A stretch of 64,000 nucleotides of DNA from Dehalococcoidia bacterium (lineage in GTDB: Bacteria > Chloroflexota > Dehalococcoidia > UBA6926). Position 1 is the stretch's first letter. Each line of letters starts with the position of its first letter. Position numbers and translations under genes: made by a program. This document shows, piece after piece, positions 13,302-62,014 of this stretch. Below the pieces are notes generated by a model. That model was not told where the DNA came from. It saw only the letters and a list, made by a program, of their open reading frames with translations, and searched no databases. The DNA is taken from positions 192,001 through 256,000 of the forward strand of contig CAXXET010000007.1 in the NCBI GenBank assembly GCA_963666115.2, read 5' to 3'.

Positions 13302-14078
13302 ATGGACCTGGGAATCGCGGGAAAGGTCGCGCTCGTTACGGGCGGGAGCAGGGGACTGGGACGGCAGGCGGCGTTGAGCCTTGCCGGCGAGGGCGCGAAA
13401 GTCGCTATCTGCGCTCGCACACAGGAGAATCTCGATGTCGTTCTGCCGGAGTTGACGGCGGCGGGCGCGCCCGCCGCCGCTGCGATAGCCGCGGACGTCA
13501 CCGACGCCGCCTCGCTGGAGCAGCTGCGCGAGGCAGTCGTCGAACAGCTTGGGCCGGTGGACATCCTCGTGAACAACGCGGGCGCGAGCCGGCGGGGCGA
13601 CGTGCTGGCGATCGGCGAGGAGGAGTGGTCGGACCTGTGGGCGCTGAACGTCTTGGGGCCGATACGGCTGAGCCGCCTTGTACTGCCGGGGATGCAGGAG
13701 CGGCAGTGGGGGCGCATCGTCAACGTATCGTCCATCTGGGGGCGCGAGCACGGCGGCGGCGTGGCGTATATGACCACCAAGGCGGCGCTCATCGCGTTTA
13801 CCAAGAGCACGGCGTTGAGTTATGCGAAGGACGGGATACTGATCAACTCCGTCGCGCCGGGGTCGGTGGTGTTTCCGACGGGGAGTTGGGATCGGTTCCA
13901 GACGCAGAACGAGCCGGACGTGGTGCGGGACTTCATCGCCAACAACCTGCCGATGGGGCGGTTCGGGTGGCCGGAGCCGGTGGGCGACCTGATTGCGTTT
14001 CTGTGCTCGGAGCGGGCAGGATTCCTGACGGGGACGACAATCAACATTGACGGGGGGCAGTCACGGAGTTTGATCTAG
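13302..14078 (+). CDS. Short-chain dehydrogenase/reductase
   Basis: TGGSRGLG, NNAG, YMTTK. Confidence 0.93.
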   Translation: MDLGIAGKVALVTGGSRGLGRQAALSLAGEGAKVAICARTQENLDVVLPELTAAGAPAAAAIAADVTDAASLEQLREAVVEQLGPVDILVNNAGASRRGDVLAIGEEEWSDLWALNVLGPIRLSRLVLPGMQERQWGRIVNVSSIWGREHGGGVAYMTTKAALIAFTKSTALSYAKDGILINSVAPGSVVFPTGSWDRFQTQNEPDVVRDFIANNLPMGRFGWPEPVGDLIAFLCSERAGFLTGTTINIDGGQSRSLI

Positions 14079-14104
14079 GTTCCCGCTTTCGCGGGAATGA
14101 CGGA
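14074..14104. repeat. REP/dRS3-like hairpin repeat, family A (TTCCCGC-TTTC-GCGGGAATGAC)
   Basis: 30/31 identical to 56506-56536; overlaps the SDR stop codon. Confidence 0.85.
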
Positions 14105-14213
14105 TGGGGGGTTGGGGTATACTTACGTCAAGAGAGTTTTTTGAAACGGTTCAAAATGGGCTGTTTCGCAGACGAGGAGGTGTCCTACGGCCCCTGACAA
14201 CGCAAGCTCGGCC

Positions 14214-26120: not shown

Positions 26121-26840
26121 ATGGGACAACTCGACGGCAAGGTCTGCATCATTACGGGTGGCGGCAGGGGCATCGGGAAGGGGATCGCGCGCGCGTTCGC
26201 CAAGGAGGGCGCGACCCTTGTCCTGGCGTCGCGGCAGCTTGAGCATCTCAACACGACCGCCGAGGAGATGCGCGAGTACGGATCGCCTACCCTCGTGGTC
26301 CAGACGGACGTGACCAGCGAGGAGCAGATCAAGAGCCTCTTTGCGACGACGATGGCGGAATATGGGCGAGTGGACATCCTGGTGAATAACTCCGGGGTGT
26401 TCGACGGCGGGCCGGTGGACGAGCTTTCGCTGGAGACGTGGAACAAGGTCATCAGCATCAACCTCACCGCGGTTTTCATCTGCACACGGGAGGCCATGAA
26501 GATCATGAAGCCGCAGGCAGGCGGGCGGATCATCAACATCGGCAGCATCTCGTCGAGCATCCCCAGGATGAACTCGGCCGCCTACGCATCCACCAAGCAC
26601 GCAATCATCGGGCTCACCAAGTCGACCGCGCTCGAGGGCAGGCCGTTCGGCATCTCGGCGGGCGCGCTTCATCCCGGGAGCGTCACGCTGGAGTGGCGCG
26701 GCCCCGAAGACCCGGACGCGACCATGTCCGTGGACGACGTCGCCATCGCCGCGCTGGCAATGGCCGTCATGCCACCCTACGCCAATATGCTTGACGCGAC
26801 AGTCCTGCCCATCAAACAGCCGTTTTTGGGGCGGGGGTAG
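26121..26840 (+). CDS. Short-chain dehydrogenase/reductase
   Basis: TGGGRGIG, NNSG, YASTK. Confidence 0.92.
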   Translation: MGQLDGKVCIITGGGRGIGKGIARAFAKEGATLVLASRQLEHLNTTAEEMREYGSPTLVVQTDVTSEEQIKSLFATTMAEYGRVDILVNNSGVFDGGPVDELSLETWNKVISINLTAVFICTREAMKIMKPQAGGRIINIGSISSSIPRMNSAAYASTKHAIIGLTKSTALEGRPFGISAGALHPGSVTLEWRGPEDPDATMSVDDVAIAALAMAVMPPYANMLDATVLPIKQPFLGRG

Positions 26841-26862
26841 GCCGCTGATCTCCCCTCATTCC

Positions 26863-27380
26863 AGGGAGTCATTGGGGTTCTTCTTTCGTGGTGTCCCTTG
26901 TGCTCTCCTTTCGGTTCGTTCCGGTTTGGCGGGTCTTGGGGGGTGCATCGGCGCTGCGGGCCTCCAGCCTTTTGGTTGAGCCGTCATCGGTTCGGCGCAG
27001 TGGGAGCTTTGTTCCATCGCGTCGGCCACCGTTTTAGGCCGCGCTCCGGTCTCCAGATATTCGCGCCAGAAGCTACCCTGGCGCCGGACGACTCTCGCTG
27101 CGCCGCGATTGCCGCCCCCCTATACGCCCCGTCAGCCCACCGTCACTGGCCGCCCGTGGCCACGAGCAAACCCGTCGTGGTTTCCTGGCCGGGAAACCGG
27201 AGGGCCTTGTCGCCGATGCACCCCTCGCAGGGAGCGCCCTCCATTGCGCGCCCCCGGGGATTGTTGTGACGGCCCGGGTGTTAACTTGCCCTCGCCGCCG
27301 TCGAAAAGGCTTGTTTCGATGTGGGGAGGTTAGTACAGGGGTTTTGTTTGGTGCAAGGGGTGGTGGCACATGGGGGGGGC
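26863..27380 (+). ncRNA. Candidate large structured non-coding element (RNA or ssDNA), family unrecognised
   Basis: No credible ORF. Nested helices 26940-26953/27211-27224 (14 bp perfect), 26993-27006/27092-27105 (14 bp, 2 G-U), 26890-26898/27229-27238, plus several local hairpins. Confidence 0.55.
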
Positions 27381-27442
27381 TGTCATTCCCGTGCACGGAG
27401 GAATCTAGCACTCCCTCCGAATCCCCCGCGTAGGCGGGGGCA
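27379..27442. repeat. Composite hairpin repeat, left boundary of accessory cassette
   Basis: GTCATTCC...GGAATC hairpin plus 27-mer 27416-27442, the exact reverse complement of 32562-32588. Confidence 0.85.
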
Positions 27443-27500
27443 CCGTATACTGAGTATGGACGGCAAATCGAAGGGATCTGGGGCAGCATTTGGAGGGTAC

Positions 27501-28808
27501 ATGACAGTGACCCAGCGGCCGAGGGTGGGTGCCATAGGTCTGGATGCCTCGCATCTGGATTCTATCAGGCCGCTTTGCGGAGAGCTTAGGCCAGCCGACT
27601 CCTTGGGTGAATATTGCCAGCTCTACAGTTGGACGGAAACGGATATTTTGGTAGCGCGTGACTTCGATTCTTGGGAGAATGATCCTTCTCCTGTCAAAAT
27701 CAATCCTGATGTCAATCTACTCGCTTTTGGTGACTTGTATGTTATGTGGCCGGATACGTATTTTGTAAGGCACGATCACGCTACCGAACACTTCGCATCG
27801 ACTAGCGAGAACACGGAACGTGAACTTACGGTCACGGGCTCTTGTCCTGATTCATACAGAGACCTCGCCAATGAGTTGGTCAGGGAGTTGCCGACAAGGC
27901 AGAGCCCCCCTACAGTGATCGAGACTTCCAGAGGATCGCGTAAGGCCTTGGTTTCAACTACCTCAAAACGTCCCGTCGCCTTGCACATCGATTTGCCATC
28001 CCAGAAAGAAGGGCCGGACAGGAAGTCAGTACAGGCGGTCGCACTCCTCCTCCCTAACGTCTCTAACCTCGCGGCTTGGTTCAGAGCCTTCCTCTCGGGG
28101 GTACATGAAAGGAATCCCCACCAGGTTCCGCATGCCCCGCCTCGTCTGAGCGATCCATCAGATTGGTACACGCCTGATGAGAGGGAGTTGGCTGCTCAAA
28201 TCTCGGAAACCAACGCGGAAATCACCGCTTTAAGGGACAAGCATGACCGTCTGGAAGAACTACTGGCCGCAAAGACGACAGAGGCCGATGCAGGGATTCG
28301 GCGCGCTCTCTGGGCAGACGGAGACGACTTGACTGCTGCGACCATGAAGATTCTTTCCGGCCTAGGCTTTAGAGTCCGGGATATGGATGCCGAATTGGAG
28401 AAGGGGGAGCCCAAGCGCGAAGACCTGCGACTGACACTCCCTGAACGCCCTAAGTGGAATGCCATTGTGGAAGTCAAAGGCTATTCGGGCGGCACAAGGA
28501 CGAACGATGCCCGTCAAATTAGGGAGCATCGCGATCGCTACATGCAGGAGGAAGGTCGGCAGCCTGACTTGACCCTCTGGCTAGCCAACACTCATCGCAA
28601 CTCCGACCCTTCCGGTAGGCCCCTGCCGGACGGAAACGTAAAGGACACCGCTGAGGCGGTCGGCATCGTTCACGCGCAAGTGCATGATCTCCTTCGACAA
28701 TGGCTGTTTGTCCAGGCAGGCATTCATGATGTAGCAATTGTTGTGCAAAGTTTGGTCGATGCCGAACCCGGGCTCTGGACTCCGCCAACCCCTCCTGGCC
28801 ACGCATAG
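27501..28808 (+). CDS. Hypothetical protein with coiled coil and C-terminal PD-(D/E)XK nuclease-like domain
   Basis: ATG after GGAGGG; ILSGLGF...REDLRL...IVEVKG...DARQI pattern. Confidence 0.65.
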   Translation: MTVTQRPRVGAIGLDASHLDSIRPLCGELRPADSLGEYCQLYSWTETDILVARDFDSWENDPSPVKINPDVNLLAFGDLYVMWPDTYFVRHDHATEHFASTSENTERELTVTGSCPDSYRDLANELVRELPTRQSPPTVIETSRGSRKALVSTTSKRPVALHIDLPSQKEGPDRKSVQAVALLLPNVSNLAAWFRAFLSGVHERNPHQVPHAPPRLSDPSDWYTPDERELAAQISETNAEITALRDKHDRLEELLAAKTTEADAGIRRALWADGDDLTAATMKILSGLGFRVRDMDAELEKGEPKREDLRLTLPERPKWNAIVEVKGYSGGTRTNDARQIREHRDRYMQEEGRQPDLTLWLANTHRNSDPSGRPLPDGNVKDTAEAVGIVHAQVHDLLRQWLFVQAGIHDVAIVVQSLVDAEPGLWTPPTPPGHA

Positions 28809-28962
28809 CGAACTGCCCTTCTTCCGCAGAGCGCACCGTGTTGTGGTTTCCTGTACGCCCAAGTTAAGTACAGAGACCGATTCCAGTGCGGCCACGGCTT
28901 TAGGGCGACAACTACTTCCGCCTAGGCGGCGAGATTTTGACGAGGCATCCGGTCAGTTTCCC

Positions 28963-29865
28963 TCACTCGCTTTGTTCCAGCACGTCCACCCTAAAGTCCT
29001 CCAGATTTGGCGTGTCGGCCCCCTCGTAGAGAATCTCAAACGGCTTGACATCGCCCTTGAGCGGAGCCCTCGGCATGTAACGCACGACATAGCAATAGGG
29101 TAGGCTATCGCTGGAGTACAGTTGAACAGAAAAGATTAGTTCAGTGGGCGGCAACTGAAATCTTCCACGCTGTGCCCTAGAACCGAAAGCAATTCTCAAC
29201 CCCCTGTTGGACCAGAAACTTAAGACATCCACTTGCGCCTGAGATTGCGGAGCGATAGACCTACTGGTTGGGTACTGCTGCGAGGCGTGGTCGGCCCATG
29301 TCAATTCAACTGGGTAAGGCACGAACTCATATCCGCGGTAGTTGTATGCTGCCCAGTACGCTTGACTAGTTCCAGCAGATGGTGCAGTGCGTTGTCGCGG
29401 CCGCATACCTGTTAGAAGTACTCGGCAGTCTAATGCCCGCGAATTCGACTGATTCGCAACAGTTATGTGCAGGTATTCCGTATCTATCAATGCATCCGCA
29501 AGCTTTTCGTTCAAATCGTCCGATTTGCGGATGTCCACGACACGTAATTTCGGCTTAAGCGCCTCACGCATGGTGGCCAATTCTCGCCGCGCTTCATTGC
29601 GCTGAGCAAAGGGCGCCTTTGCGGACGCAAACAAGAACGGCAACAGAAGGAAAGACAGTAATCCCAGCGTCGCTATCAGCGGTAGTGGCCAACTGACATT
29701 CGATAGAGTTGCTAAAGCAATCAGGAGGGCCAACAACGCGTCGAGAATCAGGAACACAGCGGATCGAAGTAGATTCGTTCCATCCTTCCATGTCCGAACC
29801 AGAATGCCTTGTGAAAGGTCGGTCGTTTGTGTCGACCGACCTTTCGGGCTGTTTGCCAACATCAT
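28963..29865 (-). CDS. Hypothetical membrane protein (two N-terminal TM helices, beta-rich C-terminal domain)
   Basis: 300-aa ORF with AAGGAGA RBS, two hydrophobic segments, lower GC. Confidence 0.65.
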   Translation of the reverse strand: MMLANSPKGRSTQTTDLSQGILVRTWKDGTNLLRSAVFLILDALLALLIALATLSNVSWPLPLIATLGLLSFLLLPFLFASAKAPFAQRNEARRELATMREALKPKLRVVDIRKSDDLNEKLADALIDTEYLHITVANQSNSRALDCRVLLTGMRPRQRTAPSAGTSQAYWAAYNYRGYEFVPYPVELTWADHASQQYPTSRSIAPQSQAQVDVLSFWSNRGLRIAFGSRAQRGRFQLPPTELIFSVQLYSSDSLPYCYVVRYMPRAPLKGDVKPFEILYEGADTPNLEDFRVDVLEQSE

Positions 29866-29957
29866 TGGTCATCTCCTTGTCGTGCGTCCAATGTAGCGTC
29901 TTTGGTTGGGTGGCGCGAGTGAGGATGGATTCCAGGCGGCGACGGAAGAACGGAAAG

Positions 29958-30080
29958 GTCATCCTTCGACGGGCTCAGGGGGAACGGCGGGCGGCGGGAG
30001 ATTCTTCGCTGCGCTCAGAATGACGCCCGATGGATTCCGGCCTCGTATCGAAGCACGGGGCATGCTTTCGCCGGTATGAG
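29958..30080. repeat. Cluster of three hairpin repeats (families C, B, A)
   Basis: CCTTCGACGGGCTCAGGG (cf. 61927-61954); GATTCTTCGCTGCGCTCAGAATGAC at 30000-30024 (identical to 32594-32618); CCCGATGGATTCCGGC...GCTTTCGCCGG (cf. 61958). Confidence 0.85.
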
Positions 30081-30120: not shown

Positions 30121-31629
30121 CTATTCGCAAAGGGACATGCTGCCATAGTAGTCGAACCTCAGAAGCGGAATGTACGGGAAGCACCCAGTCAGGTTGTTGC
30201 GCGCGAGTAGAAACTCCTCCAGGTTGACCAGGTTACCCAGTTGCGGCGGTATCTCACCGCTCAGGTTATTGTCCCGGATGTTCACCCATATCAGATTGGT
30301 CAGATTGCCCAGTTCCGGGGGTATCTCGCCGCTGAGTTCATTACGGTGAATGTACAACCTACGCAGATTGGCCAGGCTGCCGAGTTCCGGGGGTATCGCG
30401 CCACTCAACTGGTTATCCTCAAGACTCAGTTCCTGCAGGCTGGTGAGGTTGCCAAGTTCGGGCGGTATCTCGCCGCTCAGTTGGTTGTCTGCAAGATCCA
30501 GGGATGTGAGGCTGGCAAGGTTGCCGAATTCGAGTGGTATCTCACCGCTCAACTGGTTCTCCTCAAGATTCAAGATGCTGAGGTTGCCGAGGTTGCCAAG
30601 TTCGGGCGGTATCTCGCCCCTCAACTGATTCTCTCCAAGATACAGCTGCCACAGGCTGGTAAGGCTGCCGAGTTCGGGCGGTATCTCTCCGCTCAACTGG
30701 TTACCCAAAAGACTCAAAGACTTCAAGTTAGCTAGCTTTCCAAGTTCCGGTGGTATCTCTCCGCCCAACTGGGTCCACGTAAGGTTCAGGTGTTCCAGGT
30801 TGGCCAGATCGCCGAGTTCAGACGGTATCTCACCACTTAACTGATTCCGCGCGAGACCCAGGTATTCCAAGTTGGCCAGATCGCCGAGTTCAGACGGTAT
30901 CTCACCACTTAACTGATTCCCATGGAGATTCAGGTATTCCAGGTTGGTGAGACCGCCGAGTTCAGGCGGTATCTCACCGCTCAACTGATTCCACTCGAGA
31001 TTCAGGTACTCCAGGCTGGCCAGAGCGCCGAGTTCAGACGGCATCTCGCCGCTCAACTGATTCTGCTGGAGATTCAGATACTCCAGGTTGGCGAGATTGC
31101 CCAGTTCAGGCGGTATCTCGCCAGTCAACCCCTTCCGCGCGAGGTCCAGGAATTTCAGGTTGGCAAGTTTGCCGAGTTCAGGCGGGAACTCGCCAACCAA
31201 TGGGAATTTGGTGAAATCCAGTTTAGTCACACGGCCACCAGCATCGACGGTAACACCGAACCACTCCTCGATAGGATGATCGCTTAGCCACTTGTGATCG
31301 CTCGGCCAAGCGTTGTGGTGGGCGTACACCGACCATTTTGGGCCGCTCGTGGCGTTGTAAAGCGCCACGAGAACATCCCTGTCTGCGGCGGCGAGTTCCT
31401 CGGGGGTGGGTGTTGGCGTGGGAGTGGGGCGCGGCGTTGGCGTGGGAGTGGCCGTCGGCACGCGCGTCGGCGACGCGGTGGGCGTGTGGGTGGGCAGCGC
31501 GGTGGGGGTGGGCGCGGGTGTCGGAGGCGTCGGTTCAGGCGTGTGGGGATTCTCGCTGCACGCAGCGAGGGCGAGCACGAGAACTGCAATGAGGAGCAGG
31601 GGCGCAAAGGCGCGATGGAGGGCAATCAT
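30121..31629 (-). CDS. Leucine-rich-repeat lipoprotein with plant-type 24-aa LRRs and Pro/Thr linker
   Basis: Lipobox LAAC, (PT)n linker, DRDVLVALYNAT..W cap, about 14 repeats of LxxNQLSGEIPPELGxLxxLxxL. Confidence 0.92.
   Translation of the reverse strand: MIALHRAFAPLLLIAVLVLALAACSENPHTPEPTPPTPAPTPTALPTHTPTASPTRVPTATPTPTPRPTPTPTPTPEELAAADRDVLVALYNATSGPKWSVYAHHNAWPSDHKWLSDHPIEEWFGVTVDAGGRVTKLDFTKFPLVGEFPPELGKLANLKFLDLARKGLTGEIPPELGNLANLEYLNLQQNQLSGEMPSELGALASLEYLNLEWNQLSGEIPPELGGLTNLEYLNLHGNQLSGEIPSELGDLANLEYLGLARNQLSGEIPSELGDLANLEHLNLTWTQLGGEIPPELGKLANLKSLSLLGNQLSGEIPPELGSLTSLWQLYLGENQLRGEIPPELGNLGNLSILNLEENQLSGEIPLEFGNLASLTSLDLADNQLSGEIPPELGNLTSLQELSLEDNQLSGAIPPELGSLANLRRLYIHRNELSGEIPPELGNLTNLIWVNIRDNNLSGEIPPQLGNLVNLEEFLLARNNLTGCFPYIPLLRFDYYGSMSLCE
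30180..31200. repeat. 72-bp coding tandem repeat (LRR units)
   Basis: Periodic AGTTC.GG.GGTATCTC.CC.CTCAACTG; 30799-30848 is identical to 30871-30920. Confidence 0.9.
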
Positions 31630-56505: not shown

Positions 56506-56536
56506 TCTAGATTCCCGCTTTCGCGGGAATGACGGA
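56506..56536. repeat. REP/dRS3-like hairpin repeat, family A
   Basis: ATTCCCGC-TTTC-GCGGGAAT; near-identical to 14074-14104; between convergent genes. Confidence 0.85.
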
Positions 56537-56564
56537 CTGGGTGGAAAATAACGGAGCGGGGAGC

Positions 56565-61926: not shown

Positions 61927-61993
61927 TTCACCCTTCGACAGGCTCAGGGTGAACTGTCCCGATGGATTCCGGCTTTCGCCGGAATGAGGGGAG
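61927..61993. repeat. Tandem hairpin repeats (families C and A)
   Basis: GTTCACCCT-TCGACAGGCTC-AGGGTGAAC then ATTCCGGC-TTTC-GCCGGAAT. Confidence 0.85.
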
Positions 61994-62014
61994 GATACGC
62001 GCCTGCCCCAGAAG

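Follow-up and report, generated by a model that had tools for sequence, protein, structure and literature searches.

The window analysed here is a 64,000-nucleotide stretch of a Dehalococcoidia genome, positions 192001–256000 of contig C7 in an assembly of 2.07 Mb and 9 contigs that is rated 100% complete (G000). Between a short-chain dehydrogenase (SDR) gene and an open reading frame (ORF) of 435 residues, it harbors an unclassified, large, multi-helix noncoding element of about 513 nt, referred to below as copy A. Read 5' to 3' on the minus strand, copy A comprises a predicted promoter, 5' hairpins, a closing helix around a multi-hairpin interior and a purine-rich tail. The element and its immediate surroundings are as follows.

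26121–26840, plus strand, SDR gene (ORF), left neighbor, convergent with the predicted RNA of the element
26850–26862, no strand assigned, left junction, a cut copy of the repetitive extragenic palindrome (REP) family REP-A (CTCCCCTCATTCC), compared with repeat families D7 and D16
26869–27381, minus strand, copy A, short form, about 513 nt, edges by alignment to copy B
26870–26890, minus strand, 3' tail by alignment, a Shine–Dalgarno-like purine run (26877–26890) and a leftover ATG (26872–26870)
27327–27356, minus strand, predicted sigma-70-type promoter by conserved motif position, −35 TTGCAC (27356–27351), 18-nt spacer, −10 TAACCT (27332–27327)
27382–27408, no strand assigned, right junction, a whole REP-A hairpin (by reading) that shares TCATTCC with the cut left copy
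27501–28805, plus strand, right-neighbor ORF of 435 residues with no Pfam match

Boundaries and coding capacity

Similarity between copy A and copy B (G000:C6:562706–563215; 91%) begins at 26869 and stops at 27380–27381, edges that nearly equal the 26863 and 27380 given in a preliminary description of this stretch; the block and its boundaries are thus real. That description also held that the block contains no credible ORF, and we found the same: five stop-to-stop frames across it return no Pfam family at E ≤ 0.01, and scattered 1- to 2-nt indels run through the conserved interior of 16 aligned copies. The Infernal search that it proposed was carried out with Rfam 15 (4227 models) and places no known family over the block; indeed, no match at the gathering score is found in the whole window, consistent with the reported lack of RNase P, tmRNA, signal recognition particle (SRP) RNA and riboswitch signatures. 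Between 26700 and 27600 the sole hit at E ≤ 10 is CRISPR-DR28 at 27422–27444, outside the block, which we consider junk at 16.1 bits versus a gathering score of 35. The same holds for the element elsewhere, with no Rfam match over it in 20 related loci at the gathering score and none in five loci at E ≤ 1. Among the titles and beginnings of abstracts listed by full-text literature searches, none describes the element. The left neighbor is assigned through its orthologues at two further element loci (L013 and L029), which match adh_short at ≈1e-54, with orthology taken from 86 to 87% DNA identity.

Copies and phylogenetic range

The BLASTn search for copies suggested by the preliminary description reveals a repeated element. 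G000 holds five copies, of which A and B are full and C, D and E are partial matches to the right-hand 250 nt (73–79%). Since C, D and E are mutually 94 to 98% alike over 639 to 673 nt, they represent a long form, which has nothing but its right part in common with A and B; unit length across the family is 0.5 to 0.75 kb. Matches are present in 14 of 21 other genomes of the same genus, with up to ≈11 per genome; the 19 genomes examined from outside the genus yield no match. R1, a covariance model built on the conserved core, detects the element in six of the seven members of the genus that were sampled (G002 and G009 have 10 copies each, G014 has none) and, across 143 further genomes of the class, gives just one hit, a weak one (E = 8.8e-4). 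When the genomes of 185,579 species and a metagenome collection were scanned by pattern and nhmmer was then applied, all additional copies came from Dehalococcoidia or Chloroflexota records, the metagenome scan yielding three loci, all family members and one of them a duplicate. Neither BLAST nor the covariance model gives a convincing match outside the genus, and by these searches the family is restricted to one genus of uncultured Dehalococcoidia. After removal of duplicates, the working set comprised 50 loci.

A conserved predicted promoter on the minus strand and a common right end

The promoter motif is the best conserved feature of the family. The motif TTGCAC-N18-TAACCT that had been noted on the minus strand at 27356–27327 is present there, and TTGNNN-N18-TANNNT recurs on the minus strand in 50 of 50 copies, with a spacer that is always 18 nt. 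All 50 copies keep TTG in the −35 hexamer, and the −10 hexamer occurs in nine variants (TAAAGT in 32 copies, TATAGT in six, TATCGT in three, TAACCT in two, and others) among which only the T, the A and the final T are fixed. This pattern of conservation is that expected of a selected sigma-70 promoter and predicts promoter activity, with transcription of copy A starting near 27320. The direction of the motif had seemed to contradict the proposed plus-strand fold; a motif kept in every copy and pointing to the minus strand speaks instead for that strand. The promoter of copy A is a weak representative, which matches the consensus at six of 12 positions and fails a simple consensus scan. The right end, immediately inside which the motif lies, is common to all copies and reads ...GGTGGTG(G/T)CACATGGGGGG. 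At the right end of copy C (L003), the terminal motif GTCACATGGGGG is tandemly duplicated.

Comparative support for the fold

The helices that define the fold of copy A, listed in the order of the predicted RNA, are given below with their support among the copies.

27268–27302, minus strand, hairpin P1 of the 5' domain; four of 10 pairs changed on both sides over 47 copies, one pair GC in 25 and GU in 21
27230–27255, minus strand, hairpin P2; stem of 27230–27237 with 27248–27255, 98% paired
27211–27224, minus strand, closing helix H2, 5' arm in the predicted RNA; perfect 14 bp in the window with 26940–26953
27195–27203, minus strand, helix H2b, which continues H2 in the short form; nine pairs with 26961–26969, three of them changed on both sides
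27160–27198, minus strand, two adjacent interior hairpins (27160–27180 and 27179–27198); near-invariant in the short form, no covariation
27063–27084, minus strand, interior hairpin GCGCCAG/CTGGCGC; CG to AT on both sides in three of 17 copies, GC to AT in one
26961–26969, minus strand, partner arm of H2b, pairing with 27195–27203; also found in an extended inverted repeat
26940–26953, minus strand, closing helix H2, 3' arm in the predicted RNA; 15 pairs in the short-form alignment, 99.6% paired, two pairs changed on both sides

H2 spans 14 to 16 bp across the family, and its partner arm is found in 45 of 50 copies, where the helix encloses 258 to 532 nt; four of the five remaining copies are cut by contig ends, and the fifth (L147) is a short stretch only. 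Watson–Crick pairs are exchanged for other Watson–Crick pairs at a minimum of eight H2 positions, for example, AU 28/GC 17, GC 24/CG 21, GC 21/UA 21 and CG 18/UA 19. Lineages differ in the interior that H2 encloses, which measures ≈270 nt in short-form copies and ≈480 nt in long-form ones. The loop of P2 presents GGAGG on the minus strand (CCTCC at 27238–27242 on the plus strand), which is invariant in 47 of 47 aligned copies.

Two structures were scored against alignments. In the core, aligned over 47 copies with 20 pairs, pairing holds in 92.6% of cells versus 44 to 55% when partners are slid, and 23 cells are changed on both sides versus 9.7 in shuffles, with the covariation score reached by none of 500 shuffles. 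For the short form (17 copies, 96 RNAalifold pairs), 99.0% of cells are paired versus 36 to 47% with partners slid, nine pairs are changed on both sides (reached by two of 500 shuffles), and the covariation score is again reached by none of 500; for both structures, the figures are not to be taken as probabilities. Compensatory base-pair change is present in H2, the core and the short form, among copies that are related.

All eight helices proposed in the preliminary description exist as complementary arms at the coordinates that it gave, and they fare unequally when followed through the 17 short-form copies. The long helix 26940–26953/27211–27224 stands, with two covarying positions, as does the hairpin at 27063–27084 with its CG to AT double changes. 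Three helices are unconserved: 26890–26898/27229–27238 is mismatched in 33 of 153 cells, and those at 26978–26993 and 27300–27320 are disrupted by indels and gaps. The two hairpins at 27160–27180 and 27179–27198 and the outer 8 bp of 26993–27006/27092–27105 are near-invariant and hence uninformative.

Folding strand

The preliminary description assigned the fold to the plus strand on the grounds that every wobble pair was G–U on that strand, a rule that fails across copies. In the main helix of the 17 short-form copies, all six departures from Watson–Crick pairing are C–A on the plus strand and thus G–U on the minus strand, and among 47 short-form pairs predicted by RNAalifold on both strands, there are 18 wobbles on the minus strand versus four on the plus strand. 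In copy A itself, three of the nine H2b pairs are G–U on the minus strand (A–C on the plus strand), and the P1 pair that alternates between GC (25) and GU (21) would be an A–C mismatch on the plus strand. Consensus energies favor the same strand, at −157.6 (minus) versus −127.2 (plus) for the short form and −15.9 versus −6.8 for the core. From the promoter, the consensus energy and the wobble counts, the minus strand, rather than the plus strand first proposed, is likely the RNA strand.

Genomic sites and REP flanks

We scanned both flanks of ≈48 loci. The neighbors are mostly housekeeping genes, many of them convergent (PALP, SDR, nadE, thiolase, Pyr_redox, HhH-GPD and others), which leaves most copies without a gene to lead. 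At least five positions, listed here, are shared by different species, which differ by 15 to 25% in a neighboring gene.

gatC/MgsA, order MgsA-(doc)-element-gatC, loci L005, L015, L019, L066, L067 and L069
thiolase/tRNA, order tRNA-Phe, tRNA-Gly-element-thiolase, loci L021, L071, L097 and L112
nadE-element-Aminotran_5, loci L020, L068, L121, L166 and L167
Pyr_redox, loci L060, L070 and L072
gyrB/L25, loci L016 and L140

Within G005, four copies share a segment that is missing from their positional counterparts elsewhere, which points to gene conversion. The insertion site occupied in the window is itself secondary. In 13 of 21 genomes, one and the same convergent sequence comes directly after the SDR gene, and the search for empty sites that had been proposed identified one in G005, where the next ORF directly follows the SDR gene; at the same site, the element is oriented as in the window in G003 and is inverted in G002. 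The window from 27450 to 30000 is probably an acquired island: G+C drops from ≈0.65 to 0.48–0.58 to the right of the element, and the 435-residue ORF lies directly after the SDR gene in G005.

The association with hairpin repeats noted in the preliminary description is borne out, with the cut REP at 26850–26862 to the left of copy A and the whole REP at 27382–27408 to its right. TCATTCC, the 7-nt sequence that flanks copy A left and right, belongs to the REP itself. G000 contains ≈111 copies of REP-A (ATTCCsG...CsGGAAT) and ≈45 of REP-B (CCCTTCGACAGGCTCAGGG); REP-like hairpins also occur elsewhere in the window, for example, at 14074–14109, 56506–56541 and 61958–61996, and at least two such families are abundant in the genome. 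Among the right ends listed, 13 of 39 abut REP-B in one orientation (count by eye). At the gatC locus of G012, direct copies of REP-B flank the element on both sides, and two short copies that carry an additional ORF (L014 and L029; see below) have REP-B at their left boundary. Across the family the right end is sharp and the left ends vary between copies.

Two further observations concern these flanks. Genes for HNH endonucleases, DNA methylases or EcoRII-like proteins adjoin six copies (L004, L013, L054, L055, L097 and L158), which lie in variable, defense-type regions. A gene for the bacterial large SRP RNA (175 bits, L018:2547–2812) is situated ≈0.9 kb from one copy in G004, probably by coincidence.

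The 3' tail, a small ORF and gatC

The purine run of the 3' tail reads AAGAAGAA in the window instead of AAGGAGAA, and AAAGGAGAA in most short copies. The ATG that directly follows the tail opens a conserved ORF of 91 to 123 residues (MSRG...) with in-frame indels in five of 16 aligned short copies (B, L012, L014, L029 and L056); copy A keeps the ATG and lacks the ORF. This ORF matches no Pfam family above the cut-off and no NCBIfam family at E ≤ 1, and it has six unnamed relatives in a set of 5.8 billion proteins. By reading, it resembles the gatC upstream region joined to the N terminus of GatC. We initially entertained a protein encoded by the element and dropped this idea in view of that similarity; the ORF-bearing short form would instead be a later copy that captured the promoter and 5' end of gatC.

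G000 (copy E) and five other genomes have a long copy upstream of gatC (PF02686, E = 1.8e-22) that points the same way as the gene. No element precedes gatC in any of five genomes that were read (G003, G010, G014, G016 and G018), and in all five, BLAST similarity to the copy E locus begins at or just before the gatC match. In four of these genomes, the preceding gene reaches within ≈50 to 100 nt of gatC, and G003 has other genes in between. A TACAAT −10 element is located between the element and gatC (by reading) and is found in element-bearing genomes also. Given the five genomes without it at this site and a −10 that belongs to gatC, the element is an insertion at gatC, and the possibility that the unit is the native gatC leader was rejected on the same grounds. 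Three of these loci (L015, L019 and L067) place an MgsA/RarA gene on the far side of the element from gatC. In some genomes only, a gene for a Doc-type toxin and a small upstream partner (translations read) stand between the rarA/mgsA-like gene and gatC, as in L180 (G003:C1:569406–572750) and L019 (G012).

Interpretation

We propose that the element belongs to a family of independently transcribed, structured RNA genes, read from the minus strand, that spreads as DNA through REP-mediated recombination, a proposal to which we assign a probability of roughly 0.6. Transcription from near 27320 leftward would yield a stand-alone structured RNA of ≈450 nt here and ≈650 nt in the long form, and the unit does not appear to encode a protein or to be the native leader of a neighboring gene. 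An untranscribed promoter that is always copied along with the unit indicates spread as DNA. The unit would multiply by recombination from one REP copy to another, the segment bounded by REPs being excised and reinserted; such a route agrees with a right end that is sharp, left ends that vary and the capture of gatC DNA, in which one REP event may have carried off the gatC promoter and part of its 5' coding sequence, to become the small ORF of some short copies. Several paralogous loci per genome would then persist at positions held in common across species, partly homogenized within each genome. As to function, we speculate that the RNA acts in trans, with the exposed GGAGG loop and the purine tail pairing with a CCUCC-type sequence such as the anti-Shine–Dalgarno end of 16S rRNA; alternatively, their partner might be a pyrimidine-rich RNA or a protein. 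In the window copy, judged from its alignment with the others, the fold is kept, and the promoter and the tail are weakened.

A number of points weigh against this proposal. By the comparison with shuffled controls that the preliminary description set for its own claim, the single-sequence fold is not special: the plus strand has a minimum free energy of −240.8 kcal/mol against a shuffle mean of −238.2 (z = −0.33, with 36 of 100 shuffles at least as good), and the minus strand has −214.6 kcal/mol (z = −1.07, 15 of 100). The core and short-form structures that were tested derive from the same sequences on which they were scored, and since the copies are related and partly homogenized, the shuffle counts overstate significance. 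The covarying inverted repeats could equally serve a role at the DNA level. The case for the minus strand is moderate: wobbles in the shared pairs of the long form are even (17 versus 18), those in H2 are about even (10 G–U on the minus strand, 13 A–C), and three conserved T–G pairs are found only on the plus strand (27001/27097, 27003/27095 and 27186/27191). Copy A may be silent owing to its weak promoter. The element is absent, by BLAST and the covariance model, from at least seven genomes of the genus and is thus dispensable. Finally, the transcript, its strand, its ends and its function are all predicted from sequence comparison.

The foremost alternative, which we nonetheless consider unlikely, is a nonautonomous mobile DNA element, either resembling a miniature inverted-repeat transposable element (MITE) or derived from IS200/IS605 or IS110, whose helices act in DNA or single-stranded DNA, or as a guide RNA in trans, to target REP hairpins. 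Genomes have between zero and ≈11 copies, distributed patchily within the genus; the common right end abuts a REP, left ends vary and a gatC flank was captured; and one genome has nothing inserted after the SDR gene, where two others carry the element in opposite orientations, all of which this explanation accommodates. The machinery is another matter. G000 has no hit to the IS110 DEDD transposase (PF01548; positive controls found in six of 14 genomes), none to the Y1/HUH transposase (PF01797), with no Y1/RAYT gene in the genome, and none to reverse transcriptase (PF00078), with no Rfam intron or retron match. The 3' region of its sole TnpB locus (C4:202220) is unrelated to the element, and a BLAST search with the element does not retrieve that locus. 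Terminal inverted repeats are lacking (of seven inverted repeats found, none involves both ends), and copies A and B have no target duplication in common. The preliminary description had called for a search for copies beside a reverse transcriptase, HUH transposase or TnpB gene; there are none at the ≈48 loci, where no transposase family adjoins the element, no transposase or reverse transcriptase is consistently linked, and a recombinase, a large serine recombinase at L147, is found at one. Shared positions in species 15 to 25% apart in a neighboring gene fit stable loci, and a purely DNA-level role leaves promoter conservation unexplained. The earlier alternatives of a novel large noncoding RNA or a mobile element thus survive in part: an unrecognized, repeated, REP-adjoining multi-helix element whose main long-range helix covaries stands, and the plus strand and the idea of a mobile element folded as single-stranded DNA or cDNA are unsupported.

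The TnpB locus itself (G000:C4:200720–203917, L031) encodes a TnpB-like ORF (400 residues, PF07282, 86 bits) followed, at about L031:1820–1990, by three direct copies of a ≈36-nt motif (CCTGTACAAGGCAGGCAAATGCCCAGGCAGTACACC-like) spaced ≈30 nt apart, an arrangement reminiscent of a small CRISPR-like array or of an omega-RNA end in several copies.

A related and rather improbable idea is that of a selfish RNA gene, the structured transcript of which would be required for its own spread, for instance by bringing an unlinked recombinase, of the host or associated with REPs, to REP hairpins as a guide or scaffold, in the manner of a bridge RNA and without a recombinase of its own; this would explain the conserved promoter and fold, the abutment on REPs in fixed orientation and the lack of a traveling transposase. 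We regard it as similarly improbable that the copies are neutral repeated DNA, that is, segmental duplicates generated by REP recombination and devoid of function, the apparent structure of which reflects high G+C and shared ancestry. The single-sequence folds that do no better than shuffles, the relatedness of the copies and their dispensability in at least seven genomes all suit neutrality. It does not account for the Watson–Crick to Watson–Crick switches at eight or more H2 positions across subfamilies, for a −10 element fixed only at its functional positions over nine variants with an 18-nt spacer in every copy, for the invariant GGAGG, or for retention of the unit at shared positions in ≈2-Mb genomes.

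We think it very unlikely that the unit is a cis-regulatory 5' leader, riboswitch- or T-box-like, of a downstream minus-strand gene, at first gatC and later copied elsewhere. One copy per genome does lie upstream of gatC in the same direction in six genomes, copy D precedes a RelA/SpoT gene by 722 nt and another copy precedes pgk, and a Shine–Dalgarno-like tail ends the unit; however, gatC has its own −10 and lacks the element in all five genomes examined for it, most copies face a convergent gene and have nothing to regulate in cis, and searches relaxed to E ≤ 1 to 10 still recover no riboswitch or T-box. T-box and tetraloop-receptor ideas were considered by eye and set aside. So was a CsrA sponge, as the number of GGA motifs is about that expected from composition (hand estimate).

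Least probable is a type I toxin–antitoxin-like repeat of the hok or LDR kind, in which a very small toxic peptide would be encoded by a long, folded mRNA that pairs its 5' and 3' parts by fold-back, for which speak the multicopy ≈500-nt unit with its own promoter, Shine–Dalgarno-like motifs and a covarying long-range closing helix (presumably akin to the fold-back of hok mRNA) and against which stand, by reading of the alignments, the lack of a small ORF common to short and long forms and a frame after the GGAGG loop that is shifted by 1-nt indels, and further the finding of no antisense promoter in the window copy and the gatC origin of the sole conserved ORF, present in a minority of the short copies.

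Relation to known systems

Large structured bacterial noncoding RNAs of unknown or newly found function include OLE, GOLLD, ROOL, HEARO and raiA. The element shares with them a length of several hundred nucleotides, a multi-helix covarying structure, a narrow range and noncoding character; it differs in being multicopy (≈10–11 per genome), with a co-copied promoter, REP boundaries and an interior of varying size, and in matching no Rfam family. Like the hok/sok, LDR and Sib (QUAD) repeats of Escherichia coli, it forms repeated units in the range of ≈400 to 530 nt with their own promoter and a covarying long-range 5'–3' closing helix, but no conserved small hydrophobic ORF or antisense RNA gene was found in it, and its helix encloses only part of the RNA. 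Intergenic dispersal, association with palindromic repeats and a copy number that varies among close relatives are features in common with REP/BIME, ERIC and Correia elements and MITEs, from which it is set apart by much greater length, a lack of terminal inverted repeats, an inward-reading promoter, a complex fold and positions kept across species. IS110-family elements target REP sequences, and the IS110 bridge RNA and the omega RNAs of IS200/IS605 TnpB and IscB are likewise structured noncoding RNAs at the end of a repeated element; unlike these, the element has no linked recombinase or nuclease gene, and its predicted RNA is two to four times longer.

Among features of the window unrelated to the element, a minus-strand ORF of 502 residues (30121–31629) contains twelve tandem 72-nt (24-codon) repeats at 30220–31266 that share 61 to 75% identity.

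Implications

A long perfect helix in one sequence was here statistically indistinguishable from shuffled controls, and the supported helices and the strand emerged only from cross-copy comparison. To our knowledge, few bacterial noncoding RNAs longer than ≈400 nt have a comparatively supported fold, and every one found to date has opened up unexpected biology. The combination encountered in this family is unusual: an RNA gene copied together with its promoter, bounded by REPs, held at the same positions across species yet dispensable in some, and displaying an invariant Shine–Dalgarno mimic in a loop. If expressed, it would represent a case of a ribosome- or RNA-binding decoy, or of an RNA that aids its own spread, in uncultured Dehalococcoidia with genomes of ≈2 Mb.

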